A DNA stretch of 34,637 nucleotides from Nemertoderma westbladi (lineage: Eukaryota > Animalia > Xenacoelomorpha): NCBI GenBank assembly GCA_032718475.1, contig JAUCBJ010003510.1:1-34637 (forward strand), given 5' to 3'. Position 1 is the stretch's first letter; each line of letters starts with the position of its first letter. Below are positions 1 through 34,637 of this stretch, one piece after another. The notes below the pieces were generated by a model, which did not search any database, was not told the DNA's origin, and saw nothing but the letters and a program-made list of their open reading frames with translations. Position numbers and translations under genes: made by a program.

Positions 1-1569
1 CTGCATCTGCCCGAGCAGGAGATCCATCCCCCGTCGTCTCTCGTCCACCCATTCGACCGCCGAAGCGGGAGTCGCCAACGTTGTAGCGGGCGGACGAGGG
101 ACAACGGGCGACAAATCTGGAATATTTCGCTCGGAGTCCAGGGTATGCACTGTCTCATGGACTGTTCTGCTGGGCACAGGTAGCTTAGTGCTGTGCAAAG
201 GGAATTGAGAAGTAGGTTCAGGGAGTACAGGTGTCTCTATTACCGAAGGGGTGATTTCAAGAACAGGCCTAATTATTTCAGGCTCATCTACTATAGTAGG
301 GAGTCTTTCTATTGTAATTATTTGGTCTGTGGGCTCTGTACTACCTAAGTTGGTGTTATTTAGTTGCCTTCTAACAGCTGGAGGCAAATCAGGCAATTTC
401 TGACGGTGGAATGTTCTTTTACGTCTGCTTAGGCGGGATCGATTTCCTCCGCCTTCAGCGTCGGTGGTATCGCCTTCCTCAGATGATGTATACCCCTGTC
501 TCTTGGGAGTAGATCGACTCATCATCTGCATATTGCTCGCTGTTAACTGTTTATTGAAGTTGTCTTGCTTCTCTTGAAGAATTTCCAACTCTAGTTGGGT
601 TGCCTCTTCAGATGCCCTCCGTTCTGCTTCTACCACTGCCTCTGCTATTGCCAGTGCCGCTTTTCTTTCGGCTTCTGCCGCTGCCACTGCTGCTGCCACT
701 GCCGTTGTCTTTCTATCTTCTATACGTTTTTTCTTTACTTGTTCTTCTTGTTCTCTAGCGATGCGGAGTTGTTCATCGAATTTAGCTTGGTTCGCCGCTA
801 ACCTATCCACATCAATCGCATCTAACACGAGTTTGGCTCCTTCGCTATTAGGGCTAAGTCCCTCTAGCCTTCTCCTCAACTCTTCATCTCCCAAAAAACG
901 CTGATAGTCTGACAGATAGATATCAATGGCATCCTTCTTATGCGGTTTCTCTGCCGTCGCTTCACTTTCCACTTGGGAAAAAGTAGCGTCCGTCGATTCT
1001 CCATGGGTTGAGCGCTCCTCCAACTGAGCTTTCCACCGAGCTGCTCCTTGAACCTGGCGACTCACCCGTTGAAACCAAGTTTTTACGGCAACTTGCAACG
1101 ACGTGTCTTGTTTTCTTTTAGAAGCCTCCTCAAAGGCGGATAAGATTAGCCTAATCCGCAAAACTCTTTCTCTAACTTGATAAAGCAGCGATCCCTGCTC
1201 TTGAGGTCCTTGAGGTTGTTGAAAAAGTTGCTTTTCTACTCGCTCCATAGAGCTGAAGAATCCCTGTGCGTATCCGGCTGCGGACCTCTTCCACACAGCT
1301 GGATCGATGGTTTCCTTGGCTACTCCCATCCGGTGTATGTCTTCCCAGGCAGCTTCTGATAAATCAAACGGGAGTCCGGGTCCGGGGAAGTTCCATTGCG
1401 ACTCGACAATAGACTTCAGTTCTTCACTCGTGTATCCCGCGTAGCTATCTCTAGTTGACCGTTGACTTCTCGCCCAATCGATCTGGTGTTCTTCCACCGC
1501 GATCAATAACCCAGCGAGCACGGCTGCAGGAAGGATGAGAAGGGGATCCGTATAAACCGCATCCGTCAT
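1..1569 (-). CDS. Long uninterrupted ORF (>=523 aa, runs off the window edge) with an Ala/Glu/Lys-rich coiled-coil-like segment and a Pro-rich segment; possibly a retroelement gag/ORF1-like protein
   Basis: Manual translation from the ATG at 1569 (MTDAVYTDPLLILPAAVL...EQEEQVKKKRIEDRKTTAVAAAVAAAEAERKAALA...VEWVDERRRGMDLLLGQMQ) has no stop down to base 1. GC is much higher than in the flanking 1890-5500. The frame stays open upstream to about 1719. The product call is inference only. Confidence 0.7.
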   Translation of the reverse strand, partial: MTDAVYTDPLLILPAAVLAGLLIAVEEHQIDWARSQRSTRDSYAGYTSEELKSIVESQWNFPGPGLPFDLSEAAWEDIHRMGVAKETIDPAVWKRSAAGYAQGFFSSMERVEKQLFQQPQGPQEQGSLLYQVRERVLRIRLILSAFEEASKRKQDTSLQVAVKTWFQRVSRQVQGAARWKAQLEERSTHGESTDATFSQVESEATAEKPHKKDAIDIYLSDYQRFLGDEELRRRLEGLSPNSEGAKLVLDAIDVDRLAANQAKFDEQLRIAREQEEQVKKKRIEDRKTTAVAAAVAAAEAERKAALAIAEAVVEAERRASEEATQLELEILQEKQDNFNKQLTASNMQMMSRSTPKRQGYTSSEEGDTTDAEGGGNRSRLSRRKRTFHRQKLPDLPPAVRRQLNNTNLGSTEPTDQIITIERLPTIVDEPEIIRPVLEITPSVIETPVLPEPTSQFPLHSTKLPVPSRTVHETVHTLDSERNIPDLSPVVPRPPATTLATPASAVEWVDERRRGMDLLLGQMQ

Positions 1570-1649
1570 CTCTGCTCCGCGCTCGGGTGTCAGCTCTACA
1601 GTATCCTCACTACTGGAGCTGCTGGGCTGCTGAGGAATAGAGTTCTTGA

Positions 1650-1886
1650 CTAGCGGGTTGTTGCTGTTCCGCTGCCTTGTTGGTCCCGCTTGACCTGAGC
1701 TCGGGTGCCTATGATAGACCTACGATGTTGGACCAGCCTAGGTTCTGTTATTACTACTGGAGGGATGACCTTCCTCACAGTGGGAGGTGAACTGGATTTA
1801 CGACCAGACGGTTGTACGTCTCTATCTGAGTCGCAGATAGTTACATCTAATATACTGTCTGACAGGTTCTGCTTAGTATCAGACAT
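1650..1886 (-). CDS. 78-aa upstream ORF overlapping the open frame of the long ORF; possibly its frameshifted N-terminus
   Basis: ATG 1886 lies at the AT-rich to GC-rich transition. The ORF overlaps the long frame over about 1650-1719, and a -1 shift would fuse the two. Confidence 0.35.
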   Translation of the reverse strand: MSDTKQNLSDSILDVTICDSDRDVQPSGRKSSSPPTVRKVIPPVVITEPRLVQHRRSIIGTRAQVKRDQQGSGTATTR

Positions 1887-5514: not shown

Positions 5515-5944
5515 AACATACCCACCGAACTCATACAACATACCCACCGAACTCATACAACATACCCACCGAACTCATACAACATACCCACCGAACTCAT
5601 ACAACATACCCTCCGAACTCATACAACATACTCACCGAACTCATACAACATACCCACCGAACTCATACAACATACTCACCGAACTCATACAACATACCCA
5701 CCGAACTCATACAACATACTCACCGAACTCATACAACATACCCACCGAACTCATACAACATACCCACCGAACTCATACAACATACACACCGAACTCATAC
5801 AACATACCCACCGAACTCATACAACATACCCACCGAACTCATACAACATACCCACCGAACTCATACAACATACCCACCGAACTCATACAACATACTCACC
5901 GAACTCATACAACATACCCACCGAACTCATACAACATACACACC
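5515..5944. repeat. 22-bp minisatellite (AACATACCCACCGAACTCATAC), about 19 copies
   Basis: Directly visible tandem array with single-base variants. Confidence 0.97.
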
Positions 5945-6037
5945 TACCGGGAAATCCTATACTCGATCTCACCTATCAATCATTGATGAGCGATTTAAAC
6001 TTATTATCAAGTTACCAAATCCCGGTTAATTTATAGC

Positions 6038-7443
6038 AATGTTACATAAAGGTTTACGGTGTAACAATGTTACATAAAGGTTTACGGTGTAACAATGTTA
6101 CATAAAGGTTTACGGTGTAACAATGTTACATAAAGGTTTACGGTGTAACAATGTTACATAAAGGTTTACGGTGTAACAATGTTACATAAAAGTTTACGGT
6201 GTAACAATGTTACATAAAGGTTTACGGTGTAACAATGTTACATAAAGGTTTACGGTGTAACAATGTTACATAAAGGTTTACGGTGTAACAATGTTACATA
6301 AAGGTTTACGGTGTAACAATGTTACATAAAAGTTTACGGTGTAACAATGTTACATAAAGGTTTACGGTGTAACAATGTTACATAAAGGTTTACGGTGTAA
6401 CAATGTTACATAAAGGTTTACGGTGTAACAATGTTACATAAAGGTTTACGGTGTAACATTGTTACATAAAGGTTACGGTGTAACAATGTTACATAAAGGT
6501 TTACGGTGTAACAATGTTACATAAAAGTTTAGGGTGTAACAATGTTACATAAAGGTTTACGGTGTAACAATGTTACATAAAGGTTTACGTTGTAACAATG
6601 TTACATAAAGGTTTACGGTGTAACAATGTTACATAAAGGTTTACGGTGTAACATTGTTACATAAAGGTTACGGTGTAACAATGTTACATAAAGGTTTACG
6701 GTGTAACATTGTTACATAAAGGTTTACGGTGTAACAATGTTACATAAAGGTTTACGGTGTAACAATGTTACATATAGGTTTACGGTGTAACATTGTTACA
6801 TAAAGGTTTACGGTGTAACAATGTGACATAAAGGTTTACGGTGTAACAATGTTACATAAAGGTTTGCGGTGTAACAATGTTACATAAAGGTTTACGGTGT
6901 AACAATGTTACATAAAGATTACGGTGTAACAATGTTACAGAAAGGTTTACGGTGTAACAATGTTACATAAAGGTTACGGTGTAACAATGTTACATAAAGG
7001 TTACGGTGTAACAATGTTACATAAAGGTTTACGGTGTAACAATGTTACATAAAGGTTTACGGTGTAACAATGTTACATAAAGGTTTACGGTGTAACAATG
7101 TTACATAAAGGTTTACGGTGTAACAATGTTACATAAAGGTTTACGGTGTAACAATGTTACATAAAAGTTTACGGTGTAACAATGTTACATAAAGGTTTAC
7201 GGTGTAACAATGTTACATAAAGGGTTACGGTGTAACAATGTTACATAAAGGTTTGCGGTGTAACAATGTTACATAAAGGTTTACGGTGTAACAATGTTAC
7301 ATAAAGATTACGGTGTAACAATGTTACAGAAAGGTTTACGGTGTAACAATGTTACATAAAGGTTACGGTGTAACAATGTTACATAAAGGTTTACGGTGTA
7401 ACAATGTTACATAAAGGTTTACGGTGTAACAATGTTACATAAA
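6038..7443. repeat. 28-bp satellite (GTAACAATGTTACATAAAGGTTTACGGT), about 50 copies
   Basis: Directly visible tandem array. Each unit contains the palindrome TGTAACA-A-TGTTACA. Confidence 0.97.
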
Positions 7444-7636: not shown

Positions 7637-8818
7637 CTAACATGTAGTAATATAATTAAGGATATCAGTAATCTCATCAACATTAAAACCAGGTATATCA
7701 ATATTGCTACAACGACAATTAATTAATTCCCTACACAATTCTAATTTCCATCTATCAGCTACATCAAAAGGAACGTAGTTCAACTTATTAACGTGCGTAA
7801 CATTGATCGAGTTAATGAGAGGTATTTTACACAGATTTGCGATAGAACGTAAATTGCACCCACTTCGCGAACGACAATCATATAAAAATAATTTTGCTAA
7901 ATAACGAATGCTTGATTTTTCAGACTGCACTAAACTGGTACAAAATCTTATAAAACGTGAATATAACATAATACTGGGGTGTTTAAACTGCATTACATTT
8001 TCTACAATATATCTATGTGATGTAAAAGGCAATCTAAAAATAATCCTAATATTAATATTCCATGAACTGTATATACGAGTACACGATGCAGAAAAAAGAT
8101 CCCATAAATTACTACCGTAGAAGGATGTGCAATAAATACGCTGAATATTACTCAAAACATACAGATCAGAAAAATAGAATTCTTGTCGAAGTACATTGAG
8201 CTTTCCTATAAATTTTCCCCGTTTTCGTATAATATCAGACTCCATTGTGTTCTGGAAATCTAACATGTTTCCTAGATGCAACGCCTCCCTGACCCAAGGA
8301 AGTGGTCTCCCGTTCAGCATTACTGACGCTGTGGGTTTAAACCACACTCTCCCAAAAGGAATGCATTTGGATTTATCCGGATTCGGGTTTGTACTAAACA
8401 CGAGATGGTTTTCGGTTGCGAACTCCTCGCATAACTTGACCATAAACCGTAGTCCCACTATGGAAGGGCATAAAAGGAGAAGATCATCTGCGTAGCCGAA
8501 AATACCAAAATAAAAAGAACCAATATAACAGCCAACTTTAGATGACCTCAGTTTTGATATTAATTTATCCAATATAATACAGAACAGAATCGGAGATGCC
8601 ACTGAACCTTGACGAACTCCGTTCGTTAACGTAAATGACTCGGAATGGAAGCTGTTCCAGCGGACGCAACATGTTTGATTACTATAGATCCATAGCAGGG
8701 TTCGTAAGAAAAAAGGAGAAAACCCCTTCTTAATAAGTTCCAGAAATAGCTTGCACCATTCAACCATAACGAAGGCTTTCGATAGATCGAGAAGACATCC
8801 AAATACAGGAGTTGCGTT
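7637..8818 (-). pseudogene. C-terminal half of LINE ORF2 (RT catalytic core with YADD, to the stop codon)
   Basis: The frame of ORF 7637..8767 extends upstream to 8818 as NATPVFGCLLDLSKAFVMVEW. The conserved AFD reads AFV here. Confidence 0.9.
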
Positions 8819-9054
8819 TACACCTTTAATTACAGTTGCAACAGCTCATCTCCAATTTATTTAATTAATATCACCTGGCAGCAATACCGAGCTGAATATT
8901 TATTTATTTGTACTTCCCTCCTGTTTCACTCTAGCATACTTGAGGCCGTTAGGTCCGCTGTTAGAGATAGAATATTTGCAACTTAAGACTGCCCGTTCAA
9001 TAGAAGTGGATTAGGTGGGACTGCGAGTGTCAGGGGCTAGTGGCTGAGCTGGTT

Positions 9055-9100
9055 AGCGCTACTGATGAGGCCTGTTAGGCCGAAACGTGCGTATAGCGCT
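9055..9100 (+). ncRNA. Minimal type I hammerhead ribozyme, copy 1 (predicted cleavage after GUA at 9093)
   Basis: Stem I AGCGCUA/UAGCGCU; core CUGAUGA; stem II GGCCU-GUU-AGGCC; GAAA; short stem III AC-GUGC-GU; H17=A. Confidence 0.93.
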
Positions 9101-9394
9101 GGTTCAACCCCCGGTGACGCGCTCCCATTTTTTCCACTTCTGAACAAACCCATAATATTACACCTTTAATTACAGTTGCAACAGCTCATCTCCAATTTAT
9201 TTAATTAATATCACCTGGCAGCAATACCGAGCTGAATATTTATTTATTTGTACTTCCCTCCTGTTTCACTCTAGCATAATTGAGGCCGTTAGGTCCGCTG
9301 TTAGAGATAGAATATTTGCAACTTAAGACTGCCCGTTCAATAGAAGTGGATTAGGTGGGACTGCGAGTGTCAGGGGCTAGTGGCTGAGCTGGTT

Positions 9395-9440
9395 AGCGCT
9401 ACTGATGAGGCCTGTTAGGCCGAAACGTGCGTATAGCGCT
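9395..9440 (+). ncRNA. Minimal type I hammerhead ribozyme, copy 2 (predicted cleavage after 9433)
   Basis: Identical to copy 1. Confidence 0.93.
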
Positions 9441-9735
9441 GGTTCAACCCCCGGTGACGCGCTCCCATTTTTTCCACTTCTGAACAAACCCATAATATTA
9501 CACCTTTAATTACAGTTGCAACAGCTCATCTCCAATTTATTTAATTAATATCACCTGGCAGCAATACTCGAGCTGAATATTTATTTATTTGTACTTCCCT
9601 CCTGTTTCACTCTAGCATACTTGAGGCCGTTAGGTCCGCTGTTAGAGATAGAATATTTGCAACTTAAGACTGCCCGTTCAATAGAAGTGGATTAGGTGGG
9701 ACTGCGAGTGTCAGGGGCTAGTGGCTGAGCTGGTT

Positions 9736-9781
9736 AGCGCTACTGATGAGGCCTGTTAGGCCGAAACGTGCGTATAGCGCT
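9736..9781 (+). ncRNA. Minimal type I hammerhead ribozyme, copy 3 (predicted cleavage after 9774)
   Basis: Identical to copy 1. Confidence 0.93.
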
Positions 9782-9843
9782 GGTTCAACCCCCGGTGACG
9801 CGCTCCCATTTTTTCCACTTCTGAACAAACCCATAATATTACA

Positions 9844-11050
9844 CCTAGAATAGAAACCGAGAACCTCTGTAGCCGCCCAGGTACATTGGGACGTACTGGA
9901 ACCACTTTGGAACCCGAATTGCAACTCATCCAAATGTAAGCACTCAGCCTGCGAGATCAGCATGACCCACTCAAACAACTTAATCAGAAGGGAGGATAAG
10001 GCAATAGCCCTGTAATTACTGGAAAGGGAATCGTCACCTAATTTATCTTTTATCAAAGGAATAATGACACACGTCAGTAAGAACTGTGGAACAAAGCCGT
10101 GAATGAGAAAACTGTTGAACAAATCACTTAAATGTGAACATAATTCTGGAGGACCATTGATCAGGCAATCAGAATCAAAATCAAAAGTTACGTCTGTTTT
10201 AGAGCTTTTTAGCCTATGTAGACCTTCACTGACCAAATCCGGAGTGATATGCGGGAAATCAGCTGAATCACATCCTTCGAGTTTATCGGTAATCTGCGAT
10301 CTAACGAACTCTAAATCGGAATCATACGGTTGATTATATAGATCCGAATATATACTGGCGAATCGGTCGGCTATCGATTGTGGGTCTGTACAACCATCAA
10401 TGGTCGAAGTCACAGTGTTCGGTGTGGATCTAAGTTTCTTTATTTCTTTAAATATATCACTATTATTCCTTAAACACGCCTGGAGGAGTTTATCTCGACG
10501 CACATTATCTACTGAACGTTTGAGCCGTCTGACGGCATACTTATACTGCGCGCGAGACACCCGTCGCATGTGAAAAAGCTGACTATTTTGTGAAGCATTT
10601 GGACACCCCGCCGAGACCCACAAGGAATGCCATAGGATAGCTTCATCTCTAAATGGTTTAACTCGCTCCGACCAACCGGGAAGTTTAGGGCGATTATTAG
10701 CAGCACGGGGCTCACCATTATAATTATTATTTAAACTACTACAGCTGATATCAATGCATTCAAGAATATCTAAAACATATTTTTCAATAAACAGTCTATG
10801 AGTAAGGTCCGCACAAAAAATATTACCACATGTTATACAACCTGACTCAACCTCAATGTCATCCAATTTATTATGTAGATTGTTTACAAAGTCATGTTGC
10901 TGTTCAATAGAAGCTCGCTTAAATTTAATTTTACCATTACCAGTAGCATCACCTGAGCTATAATTAACACGTGGTAAATCTACACCACTAACTTTCAACT
11001 TCAAAAATATTGGGTCATGAAAAGATAAATTAGCACCAGAATGTATGTTC
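9844..11050 (-). pseudogene. N-terminal half of LINE ORF2 (end of APE endonuclease, linker, start of RT)
   Basis: ORF 9718..11085 is LINE-like up to ...WAATEVLGFYSR. Its last ~40 codons are read-through into the inserted repeat. Confidence 0.88.
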
Positions 11051-11218: not shown

Positions 11219-12398
11219 TGTGGGGCGAGCCACGAAGTGAGTGAGCCTTAGCGTAGTGGTACCATTAATCAACCTGTCGTTCTGTCGTTCTGTCGTTCTG
11301 TCGTTCTGTCGTGTTCAATTTTAAACGTTAATAACTCGGCCAATCTTTGATGAAATCTATCCAAACTTGGTACACATGTTGTTTGGCAAAAGTTTAGAAA
11401 TTTTCCAAGTAGAATTTCAGTGTGGCCTTCGAGAAGCTAAGATAATAGCAGTTAATTAGTTAATTAAGTTATTACGGTAAAAACACCATTTTCAACCTGC
11501 CTTTTAAAGGAAATTAATTGTTTTACACGTTCGTGGGGCCTTCGCGCAGCACGAGGCCCAGTTATGAGATACAAATTAAAATTGAGCGACTGTATCACAA
11601 AATCAGGTTTTGAGAAATTTACCCACACCACCAATCAATCAAAGAAAGGGGGACAGTACGTGTTCACCCCTTTTAATCCCCCCCCCCCCCCCCACCCTTC
11701 CCAACCACCAATACATAACCGCGACATCTACCACCCACGGAAGGGTAGCACGAACTTATTTCCAATCGCACGTTCAATATGCAAAGCCAGGTGGTTTATA
11801 GGAATATAATAAACGCAGTACTCGTATTCATTATAAGCCTCGTTGCGTTCGTCCTGTTTTGTATTTAAATATATTTCTTAAACGCAGGCTAGGACGTTCT
11901 TTATAATAATAATAACTAGGGATGCGATCAATATGTGAAGCCAGGTGGTTTATATAATAATTTAGTCAACGCAGTACTCGTCTTCATTATATGCCTCGTT
12001 GCGCTCGTCGCTTGTCCTGTTTTGTTATAAAATATTTTTCCTAAACGCAGACTGACGATCTTTATACAGTTATAACTATGCGAAGTTTCGAAACTGTGCG
12101 AGTAACTGTTGATACATCTATGTGGATATGTGTGATATGTGGAGATGTGTGATACAACGCCAACGCATCTTATGCCGATGTAGTAATATGGGTATTGAAA
12201 TAATATTAAATTAATGTACACTCTTAAAGCTGCAGCGAAAAAATGTAGCTAATTTCCTAGGTTACATATAAAATAATAATATTATTTTTAAGAACATTAA
12301 TTTTACTACTTTGCAAAAATTCAATTAAAAAATAACCAGACATATACATTGTGGAATAAACTATTTCAGAAGCCTACACAACAGCCATGCCATGGATA
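11219..12398. mobile_element. Rearranged Helentron/DINE-like (HINE-type) copy: 309-bp 5' end in + orientation fused to the 875-bp 3' end in - orientation
   Basis: 11219-11527 is the reverse complement of 14189-14497. 11524-12398 is a direct repeat of 12912-13786. The junction shares TACA. Confidence 0.7.
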
Positions 12399-12911
12399 CT
12401 ATGAAATTTCCCCGCTCAAGATAGCTAGTAAATTCCACCTGCCTTGCCAATAGTATAGGACCCCTTAATTTTGTTACTACCAGTCAACCAGTTCCGGTAC
12501 CCAAATAACTATGTATGTCATTCAACTCACTTTGAACACCAGTACTAGTAGTCAAGTAGACAGTACCGACCACCGTTCAAATTGGGTATGACTGCAGTTT
12601 TTTTTGCTGAAAGTGTTAACTTGTATAAACCATTTGAAATTATGTTATATTTCACATAGTCCGCATTGAGCAATTTTTTCTAGAACACTATTTATCTTAA
12701 CGACAGATTTTTTACATAGCAACAATAATGAATGAACACACAAGGGTATATTTATCTATTTAGACACTGGTCAATCATAAATAAGGAGAAACCAAGCTCG
12801 AGAAAATAAAAATGTAAGGAATAAGGATTATGTTTGCAGTTATGAGTTACAAATTTTGTAACATTGCAGTGTTATGGCAAACACTGTTACTGGTAGTGAA
12901 CTTGTAATACA

Positions 12912-14497
12912 TACACGTTCGTGGGGCCTTCGCGCAGCACGAGGCCCAGTTATGAGATACAAATTAAAATTGAGCGACTGTATCACAAAATCAGGTTTTG
13001 AGAAATTTACCCACACCACCAATCAATCAAAGAAAGAAAGGGGGACAGTACGTGTTCACCCCTTTTAATCCCCCCCCCCCCACCCTTCCCAACCACCAAT
13101 ACATAACCGCGACATCTACCACCCACGGAAGGGTAGCACGAACTTATTTCCAATCGCACGTTCAATATGCAAAGCCAGGTGGTTTATAGGAATATAATAA
13201 ACGCAGTACTCGTATTCATTATAAGCCTCGTTGCGTTCGTCCTGTTTTGTATTTAAATATATTTCTTAAACGCAGGCTAGGACGTTCTTTATAATAATAA
13301 TAACTAGGGATGCGATCAATATGTGAAGCCAGGTGGTTTATATAATAATTTAGTCAACGCAGTACTCGTCTTCATTATATGCCTCGTTGCGCTCGTCGCT
13401 TGTCCTGTTTTGTTATAAAATATTTTTCCTAAACGCAGACTGACGATCTTTATACAGTTATAACTATGCGAAGTTTCGAAACTGTGCGAGTAACTGTTGA
13501 TACATCTATGTGGATATGTGTGATATGTGGAGATGTGTGATACAACGCCAACGCATCTTATGCCGATGTAGTAATATGGGTATTGAAATAATATTAAATC
13601 AATGTACACTCTTAAAGCTGCAGCGAAAAAATGTAGCTAATTTCCTAGGTTACATATAAAATAATAATATTATTTTTAAGAACATTAATTTTACTACTTT
13701 GCAAAAATTCAATTAAAAAATAACCAGACATATACATTGTGGAATAAACTATTTCAGAAGCCTACACAACAGCCATGCCATGGATAGTATTTATGTTATG
13801 ATATCTGTCATTCACCTGAGATAGCAATACAACATTTATAGTGAATTTAAAGAATGCTGTCTGGGCTGGAATAGCAATACTGGTTGTCTATTACTATTCC
13901 TCTCTAGTTAGTCTTAGCAACAACTCCCAGCCAGCAGCAGAGACTTGACCAATAATCATTCCCAGCAACTGGGAATGACACACACATCCCATCTATGTAC
14001 CAGCATGTTGGCCAATAAATGAGCAGTATTTAATGAGAATACATTTTTTTTGCCGTTTTAATTACTTTAGATCAATTAAAGACACAATTATTAAAGCAAA
14101 TCACTTGAACTAATTAAAAACTATAATAGAATGGCGTATGTGGATTACATCTGTATAATTTTTAATTATAATTATTTAAATCTTATACTGTAAAACAATT
14201 AATTTCCTTTAAAAGGCAGGTTGAAAATGGTGTTTTTACCGTAATAACTTAATTAACTAATTAACTGCTATTATCTTAGCTTCTCGAAGGCCACACGGAA
14301 ATTCTACTTGGAAAATTTCTAAACTTTTGCCAAACAACATGTGTACCAAGTTTGGATAGATTTCATCAAAGATTGGCCGAGTTATTAACGTTTAAAATTG
14401 AACACGACAGAACGACAGAACGACAGAACGACAGAACGACAGGTTGATTAATGGTACCACTACGCTAAGGCTCACTCACTTCGTGGCTCGCCCCACA
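12912..14497 (-). mobile_element. Non-autonomous Helentron/DINE-like (HINE-type) element, apparently full length
   Basis: Short subterminal inverted motif GTGGGGC/GCCCCAC, (CTGTCGTT)n microsatellite near the 5' end, GC-rich hairpin GGGCCTTCG...CGAGGCCC at the 3' end, no TSD and no real ORF. Confidence 0.65.
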
Positions 14498-21113: not shown

Positions 21114-21377
21114 ACTTTTAAGAATTTTTATACAACTTTTGCTGACGAAAATGGTGCTTCAATAATGAACCGTAAAACTGTTCAATAAAGTGGGGCCGGC
21201 CAAGTAATTCCATAGAAACAAATCTAATAGAAAATTGAATACAATTTAAAAAAATGGGGATACAATATCTAATAGTACGACGAATATTTACAAAGCAATA
21301 ACTAATAGATTTGTTGTAAAAACAATAATTAAGATAAATAATTAGTTTGAAACCAATTGCACGTATACTACAGTATA

Positions 21378-22010
21378 ATGGATCGAAAAGGGAAGGGAAA
21401 ACAGTTAAAAAGAAAACAAGTTCAATCCAATGATGATTCAGAGAATGAAGATGGTATTAGTGGGGAGCCTAAAACTAAAGTAGAAAGAAAAAGTAGTTTA
21501 ATATTAGCAAAACCCAATAATAATGAAGAATTAAACAATAAAATAATATCATCAGAAGATCTCTCGAGAATACTCGAGTTCGATAAAGATCTGGAATGCT
21601 CGATTTGTCGCGAGGTACTCATTGAGCCGTTACTTCTCAACTGTTCGCATTCTTTCTGCTGTCACTGCGTGGCAGTCTGGTTGAAACAGAAGCCTAATTG
21701 TCCGGCGTGTCGGGAGCCTGTCCACAAAGCCACGAGATCCGCCGCACTCGACATATTAGTGGGGCAAATCGTCGCCCAACAGGACCGAGCCACTATTCGG
21801 GCCAGAGAGACAGTGCAGAAGAGCCGGAATGTAGATAAAGTTGATCTCCCCAAAGTATGCGATAAGTGCGGCCACTTCGTTGTGGAGGTAAAAAACGAGG
21901 AAGAATATGATGATGCAGATGTGAACGAGATGATTGATGCAGCTCTTGAGATTTCGCGGCAGATTGCTTCTCGTATTGCGGACGTTATTCACAGTTACGT
22001 GACGGAATAA
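21378..22010 (+). CDS. C3HC4 RING-finger protein (RNF8-like E3 ubiquitin-ligase domain), 210 aa, intronless, no FHA domain
   Basis: LECSICREVLIEPLLLNCSHSFCCHCVAVWLKQKPNCPACR has all eight Zn ligands, and the following SAALDILVGQIV...RARETVQKSR resembles the post-RING helix of RNF8. First ATG at 21378, basic NLS-like N-terminus, AATAAA overlapping the stop. Confidence 0.85.
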   Translation: MDRKGKGKQLKRKQVQSNDDSENEDGISGEPKTKVERKSSLILAKPNNNEELNNKIISSEDLSRILEFDKDLECSICREVLIEPLLLNCSHSFCCHCVAVWLKQKPNCPACREPVHKATRSAALDILVGQIVAQQDRATIRARETVQKSRNVDKVDLPKVCDKCGHFVVEVKNEEEYDDADVNEMIDAALEISRQIASRIADVIHSYVTE

Positions 22011-22974: not shown

Positions 22975-23235
22975 TGAATGGGAGAATCTTTTAGGCTCGT
23001 TAAGCCAAGGAATGCCTGTTCACCACCATGGGTGATCTTCCACAGTAAACCCTTCCACTCTGTTTCCCAAGTTGCCTTGGTTCCCATTTATCGACCACTG
23101 AAGGATGAAAGCCGGGGTTGGGCTAGGCTGCAGCATTTAAAGCTCTGTGCCCAAACAGTGCCGCCCCATCTAGGGATCGAACCCGGGCTCCCTAATCGGA
23201 AGCACAGTAATGTCACCACTAGACCAAGCTGCTGC
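22975..23235 (-). mobile_element. tRNA-derived SINE, full length
   Basis: Pol III A box TGGTCTAGTGG (23226-23216) and B box GGTTCGATCCC (23183-23173), followed by a non-tRNA body. A second copy lies at 28320-28524. Confidence 0.88.
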
Positions 23236-23999: not shown

Positions 24000-25900
24000 G
24001 GCAGTGATTTTTTATGTCCTTTTATTTGACTTTTTTTGTCCTTTTTTTTACGAATTATGCATAATGACTTTTGTTGTCCTTTTAATGACTTTTATTGTCC
24101 TTTTAATGACTTTTTATGTATGTATTTCTTCAAACTGTCAGACTGCTGATTTCTGGACTGTCAGACAGTTGATTTCACTATGCCTGTGCCAAAACATTCC
24201 ATGATTCCATGATTTATAGACTATGAGATAGATTTCCATATGCGCCTGTGGTAAAAAGACTCTATATTTAATAGTTTGTGGTTGTTGTCGATAATCGATT
24301 ACCACATGACGTAGCAAAACACTCATTTTATAGCCAAAAACAATTACCAATTGATGGAAAGGAGCAGGTTAAGGCCGAGTTTTCTAACCAAAACAATAAA
24401 CCGTCACTTTACCAAATCAGGGAAAGGAGCAGGTTACAGAGACGGGATTTTCTAACCAAAACAATAAACGATCACTTAACTAATTGAAGGAAAGGAGCAG
24501 GTTACAGAGGCGGGATTTTCTAACCAAAACAATAAACGATCACTTAACTTATTGATGGAAAGGAGCAGGTTACAGAGGCGGGATTTTCTAACCAAAACAA
24601 TAAACAGTCACTTTACCAAATCAGGGAAAGGAGCACGTTACAGAGACGGGATTTTCTAAACAAAACAATAAACGATCACTTAACTAATTGAAGGAAAGGA
24701 GCAGGTTACAGAGGAGGGATTTTCTAACCAAAACAATAAACGATCACTTAACTTATTGAGGGAAAGGAGCAGGTTACAGAGGCGGGATTTGCTAACCAAA
24801 ACAATAAACGATCATTTAACTAATTGAGGGAAAGGGACAGGTTACAGAGGCGGAATTTTCTAACCAAAACAATAAACGATCACTTAACTAATTGAGGGAA
24901 AGGAGCAGGTTACAGAGGCGGGATTTTCTAACCAAAACAATAAACGATCATTTAACTAATTGAGGGAAAGGGGCAGGTTACAGAGGCGGGCCTTTCTAAC
25001 CAAAACAAAAAACGGTCACTTTACCAATTCAGGGAAAGGAGCAGGTTACAGAGGCGGGATTTTCTAACCAAAACAATAAACGATCATTTAACTAATTGAG
25101 GGAAAGGGGCAGGTTACAGAGGCGGGATTTTCTAACCAAAACAATAAACGATCATTTAACTAATTGAGGGAAAGGAGCAGGTTACAGAGACGGGATTTTC
25201 TAACCAAAACAATAAACGATAACATTACCAATTGAGAGAAAGGAGCAGGTTACAGAGGCGGGATTTTCTAACCAAAACAATAAACGATAACATTACCAAT
25301 TGAGGGAAAGGAGCAGGTTACAGAGGCGGGATTTTCTAACCAAAACAATAAACGATCACTTAACTAATTGAGGGAAAGGAGCAGGTTAAGGCCGGATTTT
25401 CTAACCAAAACAATAAACAGTCACGTTACCAAATCAGGGAAAGGAGCAGGTTATCCGTAATACTACTCAGACAGTAGTCATGATCCATTATTGACTATAA
25501 AACTAATATAGTAATAGGCCTAAAGTATGTGAAAGGTATATCCACATTTTCCACAATCCTGCAATCCAGTTTGGCCTATCAATTATTTAAAATTTATTAG
25601 CACAACCGGTAGGCCTACCATTACCGTATTTAAATGGTAGGCTACACAGTAGGCCTATAGCAGTACCGGTGCCGGTACCGGTACTAAAATACAGAAATAC
25701 CTGCTTTATACCTACATCTGTACATACAATACAGCAAAATAGTGCTATATATACTAATACCGGTACTGATAGCCTGAGAGAACAGCAGTCAGGCAGTAGA
25801 GAAACCGGTAGCATGGAACCTAACATTAGACTTTTGGAGGACAAAAAAAATAAAAAAAAGGACAAAAAAAGGATTTAAACGGACAATAAAAATTATTGCG
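24000..25900. mobile_element. Non-autonomous Mutator/MULE-like element with about 50-bp imperfect TIRs and a 9-bp TSD, carrying a satellite
   Basis: TSD TTTCGAATA (23991-23999) and TGTCGAATA (25901-25909). TIRs at 24000-24050 and 25850-25900 contain TGTCCTTTT motifs. Confidence 0.7.
24331..25453. repeat. 68-bp tandem repeat, about 16 copies
   Basis: Unit GGAAAGGAGCAGGTTACAGAGGCGGGATTTTCTAACCAAAACAATAAACGATCACTTAACTAATTGAG, starting at 24421, 24489, 24557 and onward. Confidence 0.96.
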
Positions 25901-25995
25901 TGTCGAATATAAGTGCAATTTATTAACAGGTACACTACGGTCAGACGGTGGCTGAAAGCGGCCAAACAATATTAATTAAGCGTTTTTTTTTTTAA

Positions 25996-26064
25996 TTTCA
26001 ACCCGGGTTGAAAATAATATCAACCCGGGTTGAAACTAATATCAACCCGGGTTGGAAATAATAT
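25996..26064. repeat. 22-bp tandem repeat with palindrome TCAACCCGGGTTGA, 3 copies
   Basis: Directly visible. Reverse orientation of the array at 29652-29813. Confidence 0.9.
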
Positions 26065-28641: not shown

Positions 28642-28971
28642 TCAGTGCCCGAATAGACCGATGATCGGCGTGGTTGCTGTCCCCATGACTGAGGCTGCAA
28701 TACCAACCAAAATTGCAATTTCCACTAGGCGCTGGAGCAGAAACTGGTGTGACCGCGGTTCGTGGGTGGCTCTGTGGAGACGATCCCCGATCTCCCGGAG
28801 GAAGGTGGATGTCTCTGGACCAGGGCGGCCAAAGGTCTCAAAGGCCATGGGGTGAAAGAAATGGCCCGGTCCATTAGGTCGCGATACTTAGAGTTTTAAT
28901 GCGCTCCGCCCCCTCAGCTGAGTGCCCCCCAGCAATGATGGTTTGTTGAAGGTGGCTGGGGGACAGTGGAT
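28642..28971 (-). pseudogene. 3' fragment of a CRE-like (restriction-like endonuclease) non-LTR retrotransposon
   Basis: PLSPSHL...KYRDL...PMAFETFGRPGPETSTFLREIGDRL...FLLQRL...AASVMGT, with frameshifts. Confidence 0.78.
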
Positions 28972-29651: not shown

Positions 29652-29813
29652 TATTTTCAACCCGGGTTGATATTATTTTCAACCCGGGTTGATATTATTT
29701 TCAACCCGGGTTGATATTATTTTCAACCCGGGTTGATATTATTTTCAACCCGGGTTGATATTATTTTCAACCCGGGTTGATATTATTTTCAACCCGGGTT
29801 GATATTATTTTCA
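29652..29813. repeat. 22-bp tandem repeat (TATTATTTTCAACCCGGGTTGA), 7 copies
   Basis: Directly visible perfect array. Confidence 0.96.
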
Positions 29814-32171: not shown

Positions 32172-33365
32172 CACAATGTCCCAGAATATAGTGTCGTAAT
32201 TCAGTGACACGCCCCCCCCCTAATTTATCTACAAATCTTAATGAGATTGCATGAAATTTGAAACAGAGATAGTTTAACCTCCCGACCACTGACTGGCTGA
32301 GCCGGAATTTTTATTTTTTATTTCAATCTTTAGCTACAAGCGTTTAAAAAAAGTGTCTCCAGCGATATTACACCAGTTACACCGCAGTTATTCTTCTATC
32401 TTATAGCTGTTTGTTGGTACCAATGGAAAGTTGGCGATGCAAGGATTCAAAATATGTAACTCAATTTGAATTTCGTTGAAAAATAGCTGAGTTATGAGCG
32501 TTCAAATGTTGCATGGTTTTGCATCTGCGCAAGGCTATTTTATTCTATTTAATAAATGCATCATATTCTAGTTTATTACATCCAATCAACCACCTATAAT
32601 ATAATTTGATCGGTGGGTAAATATTATAAAAGTAATACTTTCAGTGTTCATAAATCACAATAAAATGTATATTAAATATATATAGTCCAGGTGCCGGAAG
32701 AGGTGCTATCTAGCTGCCTAGGATATCGAATAGGCCCTCTGACGGAGATTCAACTGTACCGAGGACTGCGGCCGAGTTCCTAACGAGTATTGCGACCGCG
32801 ATGCGCTGAAGCAGGAAACGATGGGAGCGAGGATCCTGTGTCGATGAATGTATCCTCCTACCGACCTCCTTCAGGAAAACTTCCGTTGCCGGACCGCGGC
32901 GACCAAACGTTTCAAAGGCGACTGGCGTGAACAGGAAACCCTGGTCAATAAGCTCCTGATATTTTCTGATCTTGAGGGTTTCCTGGTTTTCAGCAGCACG
33001 TCCGCCCCGTATGTATGCTTGTTGCCAGGTGGCTTTGGGCGAGTGGGTGTATTCTGTATTATATTCTGGAATATTTTGTTTATCCAAATACGTAGCTGGG
33101 CAACAATGCATTACATCTTTAATCATACTATTATGTAGCTATTCATACATTTAAAAAATGTTCCAGAATATGGTTTATTTATTAAATATAATAAAATAGC
33201 CTCGCGCCGGTGCAAAACCATGCAACATTTGAACGCTCATATCTCAGCTATTTTTCAACCAAATTCAAATTGTGTTACATATTTGGAATCTTTGCATGAC
33301 CAGCTTTCCATTGGTACCAACAGTGCGTGTCACTGAATTACGACACTATATTCTGGGATATGGTG
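32172..33365. mobile_element. Non-autonomous CMC-type (EnSpm/Chapaev/Transib-like termini) DNA transposon with 41-bp TIRs and a 3-bp ATA TSD
   Basis: ATA|CACAATGTCCCAGAATATAGTGTCGTAATTCAGTGACACGC...GCGTGTCACTGAATTACGACACTATATTCTGGGATATGGTG|ATA. A second inner inverted pair lies at about 32412-32556 and 33180-33322. Confidence 0.82.
32710..33050 (-). pseudogene. Second CRE-like endonuclease C-terminal fragment, nested in the CMC-type element
   Basis: GGRAAENQETLKIRKYQEL...PVAFETFGRRGPATEVFLKEVGRRI...DPRSHRFLLQRIAVAILVRNSAAVLGT. The first ~25 codons of the listed ORF come from the host element. Confidence 0.82.
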
Positions 33366-34316: not shown

Positions 34317-34637
34317 GGTTTAAATGAATCCGTTGATCAACGGGATTCAATACAACCTACTGTAGGTTTCAAAGACGTCTCAGGGTTTAAATGAATCCGT
34401 TGATCAACGGGATTCAATACAACCTACTGTAGGTTTCAAAGACGTCTCTGGGTTTAAATGAATCCGTTGATCAACGGGATTCAATACAACCTACTGTAGG
34501 TTTCAAAGACGTCTCTGGGTTTAAATGAATCCCTTGATCAACGGGATTCAATACAACCTACTGTAGGTTTCAAAGACGTCTCTGGGTTTAAATGAATCCG
34601 TTGATCAACGGGATTCAATACAACCTACTGTAGGTTT
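34317..34637. repeat. 67-bp tandem repeat rich in palindromes, at least 4.8 copies, runs off the window
   Basis: Units start at 34317, 34384, 34451 and onward. Each contains GAATCCGTTGATCAACGGGATTC, AACCTACTGTAGGTT and AGACGTCT. Confidence 0.96.

Follow-up and report, generated by a model that had tools for sequence, protein, structure and literature searches.

How does a short, non-coding repeat that carries a self-cleaving ribozyme come to be transcribed, and which enzyme puts it back into a genome? Transcription without promoters and the identity of the inserting enzyme are both open points in the biology of retrozymes, and a locus in Nemertoderma westbladi bears on the two of them. We have analysed a stretch of 34,637 nucleotides (contig JAUCBJ010003510.1 of assembly GCA_032718475.1; the window in what follows, to which all positions refer), where three tandem units interrupt a LINE gene. 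The repeat is very probably a mobile element of the retrozyme type. The explanation that we favour for the locus as a whole, and consider reasonably probable, is one recent insertion, free of target duplication, of three tandem units of a likely hammerhead retrozyme in which the ribozyme is flanked by exact matches to tRNA-type promoter boxes.

Structure of the array

The array was delimited by TRF at 8818-9846, with a period of 340 and 3.0 copies (99% matches). The units measure 340, 340 and 341 bp; unit 1 differs from unit 2 by a single substitution and from unit 3 by one inserted T, which is missing from units 1 and 2 and present in unit 3. The GC content of the unit is 0.45 and its longest ATG frames have 34 codons on the plus strand and 38 on the minus strand, i.e., it is without protein coding capacity. 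An earlier note on this DNA had described a triple tandem array of near-identical 340/341-nt units, and both TRF and the alignment of the units confirm it. The bounds given there, 8819-9846, have to be corrected to 8820-9844, the outer bases belonging to the host LINE.

The host is a LINE read from the minus strand (7637-11045), whose ORF is split by the array into a 5' part at 9845..11045 (43% identical over 257 aa to P0001) and a 3' part at 7637..8819 with the reverse transcriptase domain (RVT_1, E 8e-14; 708 homologues, the best 49% identical). Both halves align to the same homologue, and the PDB matches of the RT part are the R2 and L1 RT structures. In contigs of the DNA runs X2, X3 and X4 (X2 and X3 are one sample, and the three runs together two samples from two studies) position 8819 is joined directly to 9845 with no shared bases. 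The insertion is therefore 8820..9844 (plus strand), 1025 bp made up of three units plus ACAC, without target-site duplication. These empty-site contigs represent alleles or other copies of the LINE, and no listed contig spans the filled junction or the whole array. Removal of 8820-9844 restores a stop-free LINE frame of 814 codons that reads FYSRNATPV, with the spacing found in the homologues; the motif of this region is present in 73 of 120 LINE homologues (15 listed).

Two other interpretations of the ends were considered and rejected. An 8-bp repeat (TTACACCT) at both ends looks like a target duplication, but the empty site has only its outer bases, and the repeat is apparent because the TT and CT of the target match the unit bases flanking ACAC. 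Insertion by a DNA rolling circle of the Helitron type came into consideration since there is no duplication, and was discarded given the terminal overlap and the presence of a ribozyme, neither of which that mechanism predicts. As for the LINE copy itself, it is ca. 99% like the copies in X2-X4, which follow the window as far as 11045, and lacks 6 bp at 8364 relative to them. The copies diverge past 11045, so that the 5' end of the host LINE has here been replaced by another high-depth repeat. Summed contig depth, which is not a copy number, was 3e4-4e5 for the unit and ca. 110-420 for the LINE.

The hammerhead ribozymes

Each unit contains a type I hammerhead on the plus strand, at 9046..9105, 9386..9445 and 9727..9786. 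The CUGAUGA cores start at 9062, 9402 and 9743, the GAAA motifs lie at 9082, 9422 and 9763, and the GUA motifs end at 9093, 9433 and 9774, after each of which cleavage is predicted. In all three, stem I has 8 pairs and is extended, beyond a bulge of 4 nt, by a distal helix of 4 pairs; stem II has 4 bp and is closed by a UGUUA loop, and stem III has 2 bp and a tetraloop. For unit 2 the predicted elements are stem I (9394-9401/9434-9441), the bulge (9390-9393), the distal helix (9386-9389/9442-9445), the core (9402-9408), stem II (9409-9412/9418-9421) and GAAA (9422-9425), with stem III and its tetraloop following. When both strands were scanned with a descriptor of the type I fold, the window gave no sites other than these three, and 200 local shuffles of it gave an average of 0.03 hits each. 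Among the Rfam models, Hammerhead_1 matches units 2 and 3 with 23.4 bits (E 0.0097) and the clan model matches unit 1, while the search at gathering scores gave 0 matches in the window, because 23.4 bits is below the gathering score of 34. The earlier note's complete hammerhead in every unit, with stems I and II paired, is thus borne out by the descriptor and the motif positions, and the comparison with Rfam models that it had proposed as a check recovers units 2 and 3 with Hammerhead_1 and unit 1 with the clan model, although not at the gathering score. The monomers that it had predicted also agree, by arithmetic from the predicted cuts: one of 340 nt from cut 1 to cut 2 (9094..9433, plus strand) and one of 341 nt from cut 2 to cut 3 (9434..9774, plus strand).

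According to the descriptions in PMC4209133, canonical metazoan hammerheads have a helix II of 4 bp and a helix III of 2 bp with a small loop, and in the minimal form of Penelope elements helix II has 7-8 bp. By these descriptions the ribozyme of the unit fits the canonical metazoan build and not the minimal Penelope form.

When the contigs of the family were aligned to one 341-bp unit, 37 variants reached at least 3%. Four of those within the ribozyme are common, and they fall in loops or preserve pairing: G9429A, which makes loop III a perfect palindrome and accounts for 94% of the summed depth in X3 and 84% in X5; G9388A, which turns a G.U into an A-U pair; T9415A, within loop II; and C9421T, which turns G-C into G.U (C>T changes automatically preserve G pairs). 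Among the rare variants, A9408G changes the core and G9418A breaks a pair. The pattern is compatible with a maintained ribozyme, although statistically not strong. One of 12 positions varies in the A box described below and none of 11 in the B box, against 36 of 341 overall, and conservation of core and boxes alone is not significant.

All three copies in the window carry the minority G in loop III. In folding of four contexts the probability of stem I was 0.04-0.39 with this base and 0.90-0.95 with the majority base; in a two-unit context of 681 nt it was 0.14 at most (0.04-0.14 or lower) in every version tested, pairing between the copies being the competitor. Dimers are also predicted to form through loop III, in either of its forms (-8.8 and -9.8 kcal/mol). 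The minority base of the window array is thus predicted to disfavour the active fold, and the array may cleave less well than a typical member of its family. The stability of the circular monomer was not above that of shuffled sequences (z -1.5 and -1.2), which leaves a rod-like circle unsupported.

A large family with a recurrent terminus

One 341-bp unit compared with the 2.5 million contigs of run X3 matched 1473 of them, 438 at 99% identity or more, 415 at 95-99%, 391 at 90-95% and 229 below 90%. Run X5 contributed 107 matching contigs, and the two runs together range from 80 to 100% identity. The near identity of the three units had been read in the earlier note as the mark of a young family. 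This is not borne out, with 620 of the 1473 X3 contigs less than 95% alike; the family is large and diverse, and therefore only the insertion in the window is young. Its three units share minority alleles and so derive from one template. Exact motif scans gave 0 hits in metagenome contigs and 0 in viral contigs, and blastn against phages found no match.

The 3' terminus of the insertion (9815..9844, plus strand, equivalent to 9474-9503 in unit 2) is rich in A and C, with 22 of its 30 bases (rank 2 of the 341 windows of this size, by a statistic picked after reading the paper on the anole Penelope element, PMC11167929), and it ends 70 nt beyond the predicted cut, as internal priming of the Penelope type would lead one to expect. 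Among 12 of the 298 rows of loose ends, those at 9503, which is the phase of the right end of the insertion, have mixed flanks and recur in at least five X3 contigs and at least one X5 piece; others, also with mixed flanks, are found at 9453 in at least three X5 contigs. Base composition and the recurrent ends suggest that reverse transcription would start here. Folding predicted no local stem-loop at the terminus.

We also observed a contig of 2247 nt in X3 (depth 104) that ends in a diverged, ca. 82% identical copy of the ribozyme region (aligned on 9330-9459). It is possible that it is an autonomous partner or a nested insertion.

Candidate promoter boxes around the ribozyme

In each unit the hammerhead lies between an A box and a B box on the plus strand, at 9041..9051 and 9101..9111 in unit 1, 9381..9391 and 9441..9451 in unit 2, and 9722..9732 and 9782..9792 in unit 3. 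They are exact at every position to the published consensus sequences (TRGYNNARNNG and GGTTCRANYCY) and 49 nt apart, within the spacing of 30-60 nt given in the same source (PMC12498455). The boxes had initially been spotted by eye and were then scored against the published consensus. The predicted distal stem I draws four bases from each box: in unit 2, 9386-9389 of the A box make up its 5' strand and 9442-9445 of the B box its 3' strand. The paired pattern turned up in 1 of 50,000 shuffles of the unit, in 8 of 200,000 permutations that left the complete hammerhead in place, and once among 100 shuffled versions of the window. The real window has a single further match, at 23226, in the head of a tRNA-type SINE. 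ARAGORN reported 0 tRNAs. The one common variant in the A box retains the consensus, and no position of the B box varies at the 3% level. Judging from the sequence, it is likely that the boxes have their origin in a tRNA promoter, while their use by Pol III is in our opinion an even call. If used, they would give a known kind of animal element its own promoter.

The main difficulty is a run of six Ts 17 nt past the B box (9128..9133, 9468..9473 and 9809..9814, plus strand), a candidate Pol III terminator, placed as in a Pol III gene, and the sole run of four or more Ts on the plus strand of the unit. The scarcity of such runs is not significant, because 14% of the shuffled units have at most one. 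The run argues against simple Pol III multimers, as it would end a transcript of ca. 100 nt, and Pol III would have to read through it, since the 3' terminus and the following ribozyme both lie beyond it.

Run X1, which is RNA by guess only, provided one contig of 371 nt (341+30, depth 5.5) identical to 9430-9800 and thus covering the 341-nt monomer. Its first and last 30 bases coincide, so that it describes a closed cycle of 341 nt with the same variant as the window. Uniform tandem DNA would yield the same contig as a circle, and therefore we take this cycle as a hint only. X1 also covers 11219-11500 of a high-copy inverted-repeat element and does not cover the LINE, and runs X7 and X8 had no contigs on the unit; neither observation is evidence of expression either way.

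Other features of the window

At 11219-14497 lies an element of 3279 bp with perfect terminal inverted repeats of 309 bp that include an 8-bp microsatellite, and with an internal duplication of 1388 bp. It has no Pfam match and no clear target duplication, its ends reach the highest depth in the DNA runs, and it is likely a non-autonomous DNA transposon. The SINE mentioned above (23240-22975, minus strand) is of the tRNA type with A and B boxes, and a second, 5'-truncated copy (28524-28317, minus strand) begins at the B box. Satellite arrays were found at 5515-5944, 6037-7443, 24349-25453, 29652-29813, 25993-26064 and 34317-34637 (periods of 22, 28, 68, 22 and 67 bp); the second-listed 22-bp satellite is near-palindromic and is also present, inverted, at a second site.

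Among the open frames, an uninterrupted one of 219 codons (21351-22010, plus strand) encodes a C3HC4 RING finger; comparison with 215 candidates of about the same length revealed no homologue at E<=0.001. Another of 573 codons (1-1719, minus strand) runs off the edge of the window and has a charged, coiled-coil-like middle and no Pfam match. Two related frames (32710-33138 and 28642-28887, both minus strand) share the motif FETFGR.GP, also with no Pfam match; we presume that they are similar to the endonuclease region at the C-terminus of early-branching non-LTR retrotransposons.

Comparison with known systems

The element has much in common with the non-LTR retrozymes of metazoans as they are described in PMC7229834 and bioRxiv 10.64898/2026.07.22.740005: tandem non-coding units within 170-400 nt, GC below 50%, a canonical type I hammerhead in each unit, no LTR, PBS or PPT, and a large dispersed family. 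A retrozyme-type architecture had been proposed in the earlier note, and the non-coding tandem units, the type I hammerhead in each, the dispersed family and the empty site support it; to the note's description the analysis adds the host LINE, the lack of a target duplication and the tRNA-type boxes. By the definition in this literature a target duplication is longer than 4 bp when present and may be absent; here the absence is demonstrated by the empty site, and the element is known from DNA. As the definition requires, we find tandem hammerhead units, no coding capacity and a mobile multi-copy family. It departs from the lack of an internal promoter (an impression given in PMC7761336), since exact matches to an A and a B box, a candidate promoter, enclose the ribozyme. 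The word promoter appears in the main text of Cervera and de la Pena 2020 (PMC7229834) for T7 constructs only and is absent from the text of Li et al. 2026 (bioRxiv 10.64898/2026.07.22.740005), where one of nine predicted retrozyme dimers of Xenopus was cleaved in vitro.

A second likeness is to Sm-alpha and Sj-alpha of Schistosoma (PMC6765202, PMC2770079, PMC2220036), which are also tandem and dispersed repeats with a type I hammerhead, having a Pol III promoter where our element has candidate boxes. In both cases the cut monomer would lose a usable promoter, so that tandems are needed. The review of PMC6765202 draws the Pol III promoter of Sm-alpha ahead of the ribozyme. Unlike this layout, which we take from the legend of the review, the ribozyme lies here between the boxes and borrows from both for its distal stem I, with the T6 run after them.

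With Penelope-like elements the unit shares a hammerhead near the end and a 3' end that appears to be fixed, within an AC-rich stretch beyond the cut. In the anole, the Penelope RT begins copying at an internal, AC-rich site 85-92 nt after the hammerhead cut, and needs neither homology to the target nor its cleavage (PMC11167929); unlike that site, the terminus in the window has no predicted stem-loop. In the Penelope literature (PMC11167929, PMC3846280, PMC8557442, PMC4209133) there is also a precedent for a duplication-free insertion in a LINE, joined by microhomology, in Pen2 of Adineta vaga. In contrast to Penelope-like elements, there is no RT/GIY-YIG ORF between pLTRs in the window, the hammerhead is canonical and the locus has no inverted arm. 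Our literature searches listed no paper in which a hammerhead sits between A and B boxes, the Schistosoma elements being covered there through reviews and the 2020 paper through its main text. The class is that of the known and common animal retrozymes, from which the nested layout of boxes and ribozyme sets the element apart, as far as those descriptions go.

Proposed life cycle and alternatives

The life cycle that we propose would begin with the binding of TFIIIC to the boxes and the start of Pol III ca. 7-20 nt upstream of the A box. Most Pol III transcripts would end at the T6 run, after ca. 100 nt; those that read through, made by Pol III or by another polymerase, would span two ribozymes and be cut to monomers of 340/341 nt, which a host ligase would circularise. 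The cut falls between the boxes, and therefore a linear monomer has its promoter split, which only a circle or a tandem copy rebuilds. A Penelope-type RT/endonuclease would then prime internally on the RNA, in the AC-rich stretch 70 nt beyond the cut, copy about three rounds and join the far end by a microhomology of 2 bp. The linkage to Penelope-like RT/GIY-YIG ORFs that the earlier note had suggested looking for was not found within the window, where none of the 106 ORFs of at least 62 aa outside two satellite regions has either domain. The mobiliser is thus something that we infer, and we lean towards a Penelope enzyme. A bolder version, which we put forward as tentative and think rather doubtful, is that the unit is a Pol III gene descended from a tRNA, with a hammerhead in place of the anticodon region and with boxes that double as distal stem I; once self-cleavage had split the promoter, it would take circularisation and the rolling-circle activity of a Penelope enzyme to rebuild it.

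The simplest alternative would be an ordinary promoterless retrozyme, its boxes being relics of a tRNA-SINE or driving only an RNA of ca. 100 nt, with the circles coming from read-through by other polymerases. Retrozymes do seem to be promoterless and to rely on read-through (PMC7761336), the T6 run comes immediately past the B box, and the pairing of the ribozyme constrains part of both boxes. Yet the boxes remain exact in a family whose members are down to 80-90% alike, and the conformity of the sole common A-box variant to the consensus and the invariance of all 11 B-box positions at the 3% level point in the same direction, statistically not strong as these arguments are. We regard this alternative as unlikely. 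We would say much the same of the idea that the trimer was not produced by rolling round a circle: another array would have supplied a linear, multimeric transcript as the template, or the units would have been amplified locally in tandem after insertion. Independent rounds on one circle do not account for the T that distinguishes unit 3 from units 1 and 2, uncut RNA is the main insertion substrate of the anole element (PMC11167929) and local amplification is favoured in bioRxiv 10.64898/2026.07.22.740005. Against this, no host DNA has been duplicated along with the units, and both ends lie 4 nt apart in the same phase (ca. 9/341 positions, by arithmetic), which suggests that copying started and stopped at one site of the RNA.

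It could also be argued that the unit is just the terminal repeat of a Penelope element, debris that has multiplied, rather than a dedicated circular-RNA element. The 34-codon frame runs from an ATG in the ribozyme core to the terminus, which is the geometry of the anole element, and the 2247-nt contig has a diverged ribozyme region at its end. The frame is however unremarkable and is interrupted by insertions of 1-2 bases in subfamilies, the ribozyme has the canonical build instead of a helix II of 7-8 bp, and the Penelope literature cited above mentions no Pol III boxes in pLTRs; we consider this origin quite improbable. Least probable by far is an artefact of the assembly, in the number of copies or at a junction. 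Such an error might go unnoticed where no listed contig spans the array or the filled junction, but the three units differ from one another, the right end falls on a terminus that other contigs of the family share and the LINE frame rejoins exactly.

Our preferred reading, a recent insertion of a retrozyme with tRNA-type boxes, makes direct tests possible. In the element, a candidate promoter that is short and open to mutation forms part of the ribozyme, and the clean pair of filled and empty sites pins the integration junction to the base. If the tRNA-derived version were true, this would be a self-promoting circular-RNA retroelement, originating from a SINE rather than from the end of a Penelope element, and the locus would preserve the record of three rounds of copying that began and ended at a single AC-rich site.
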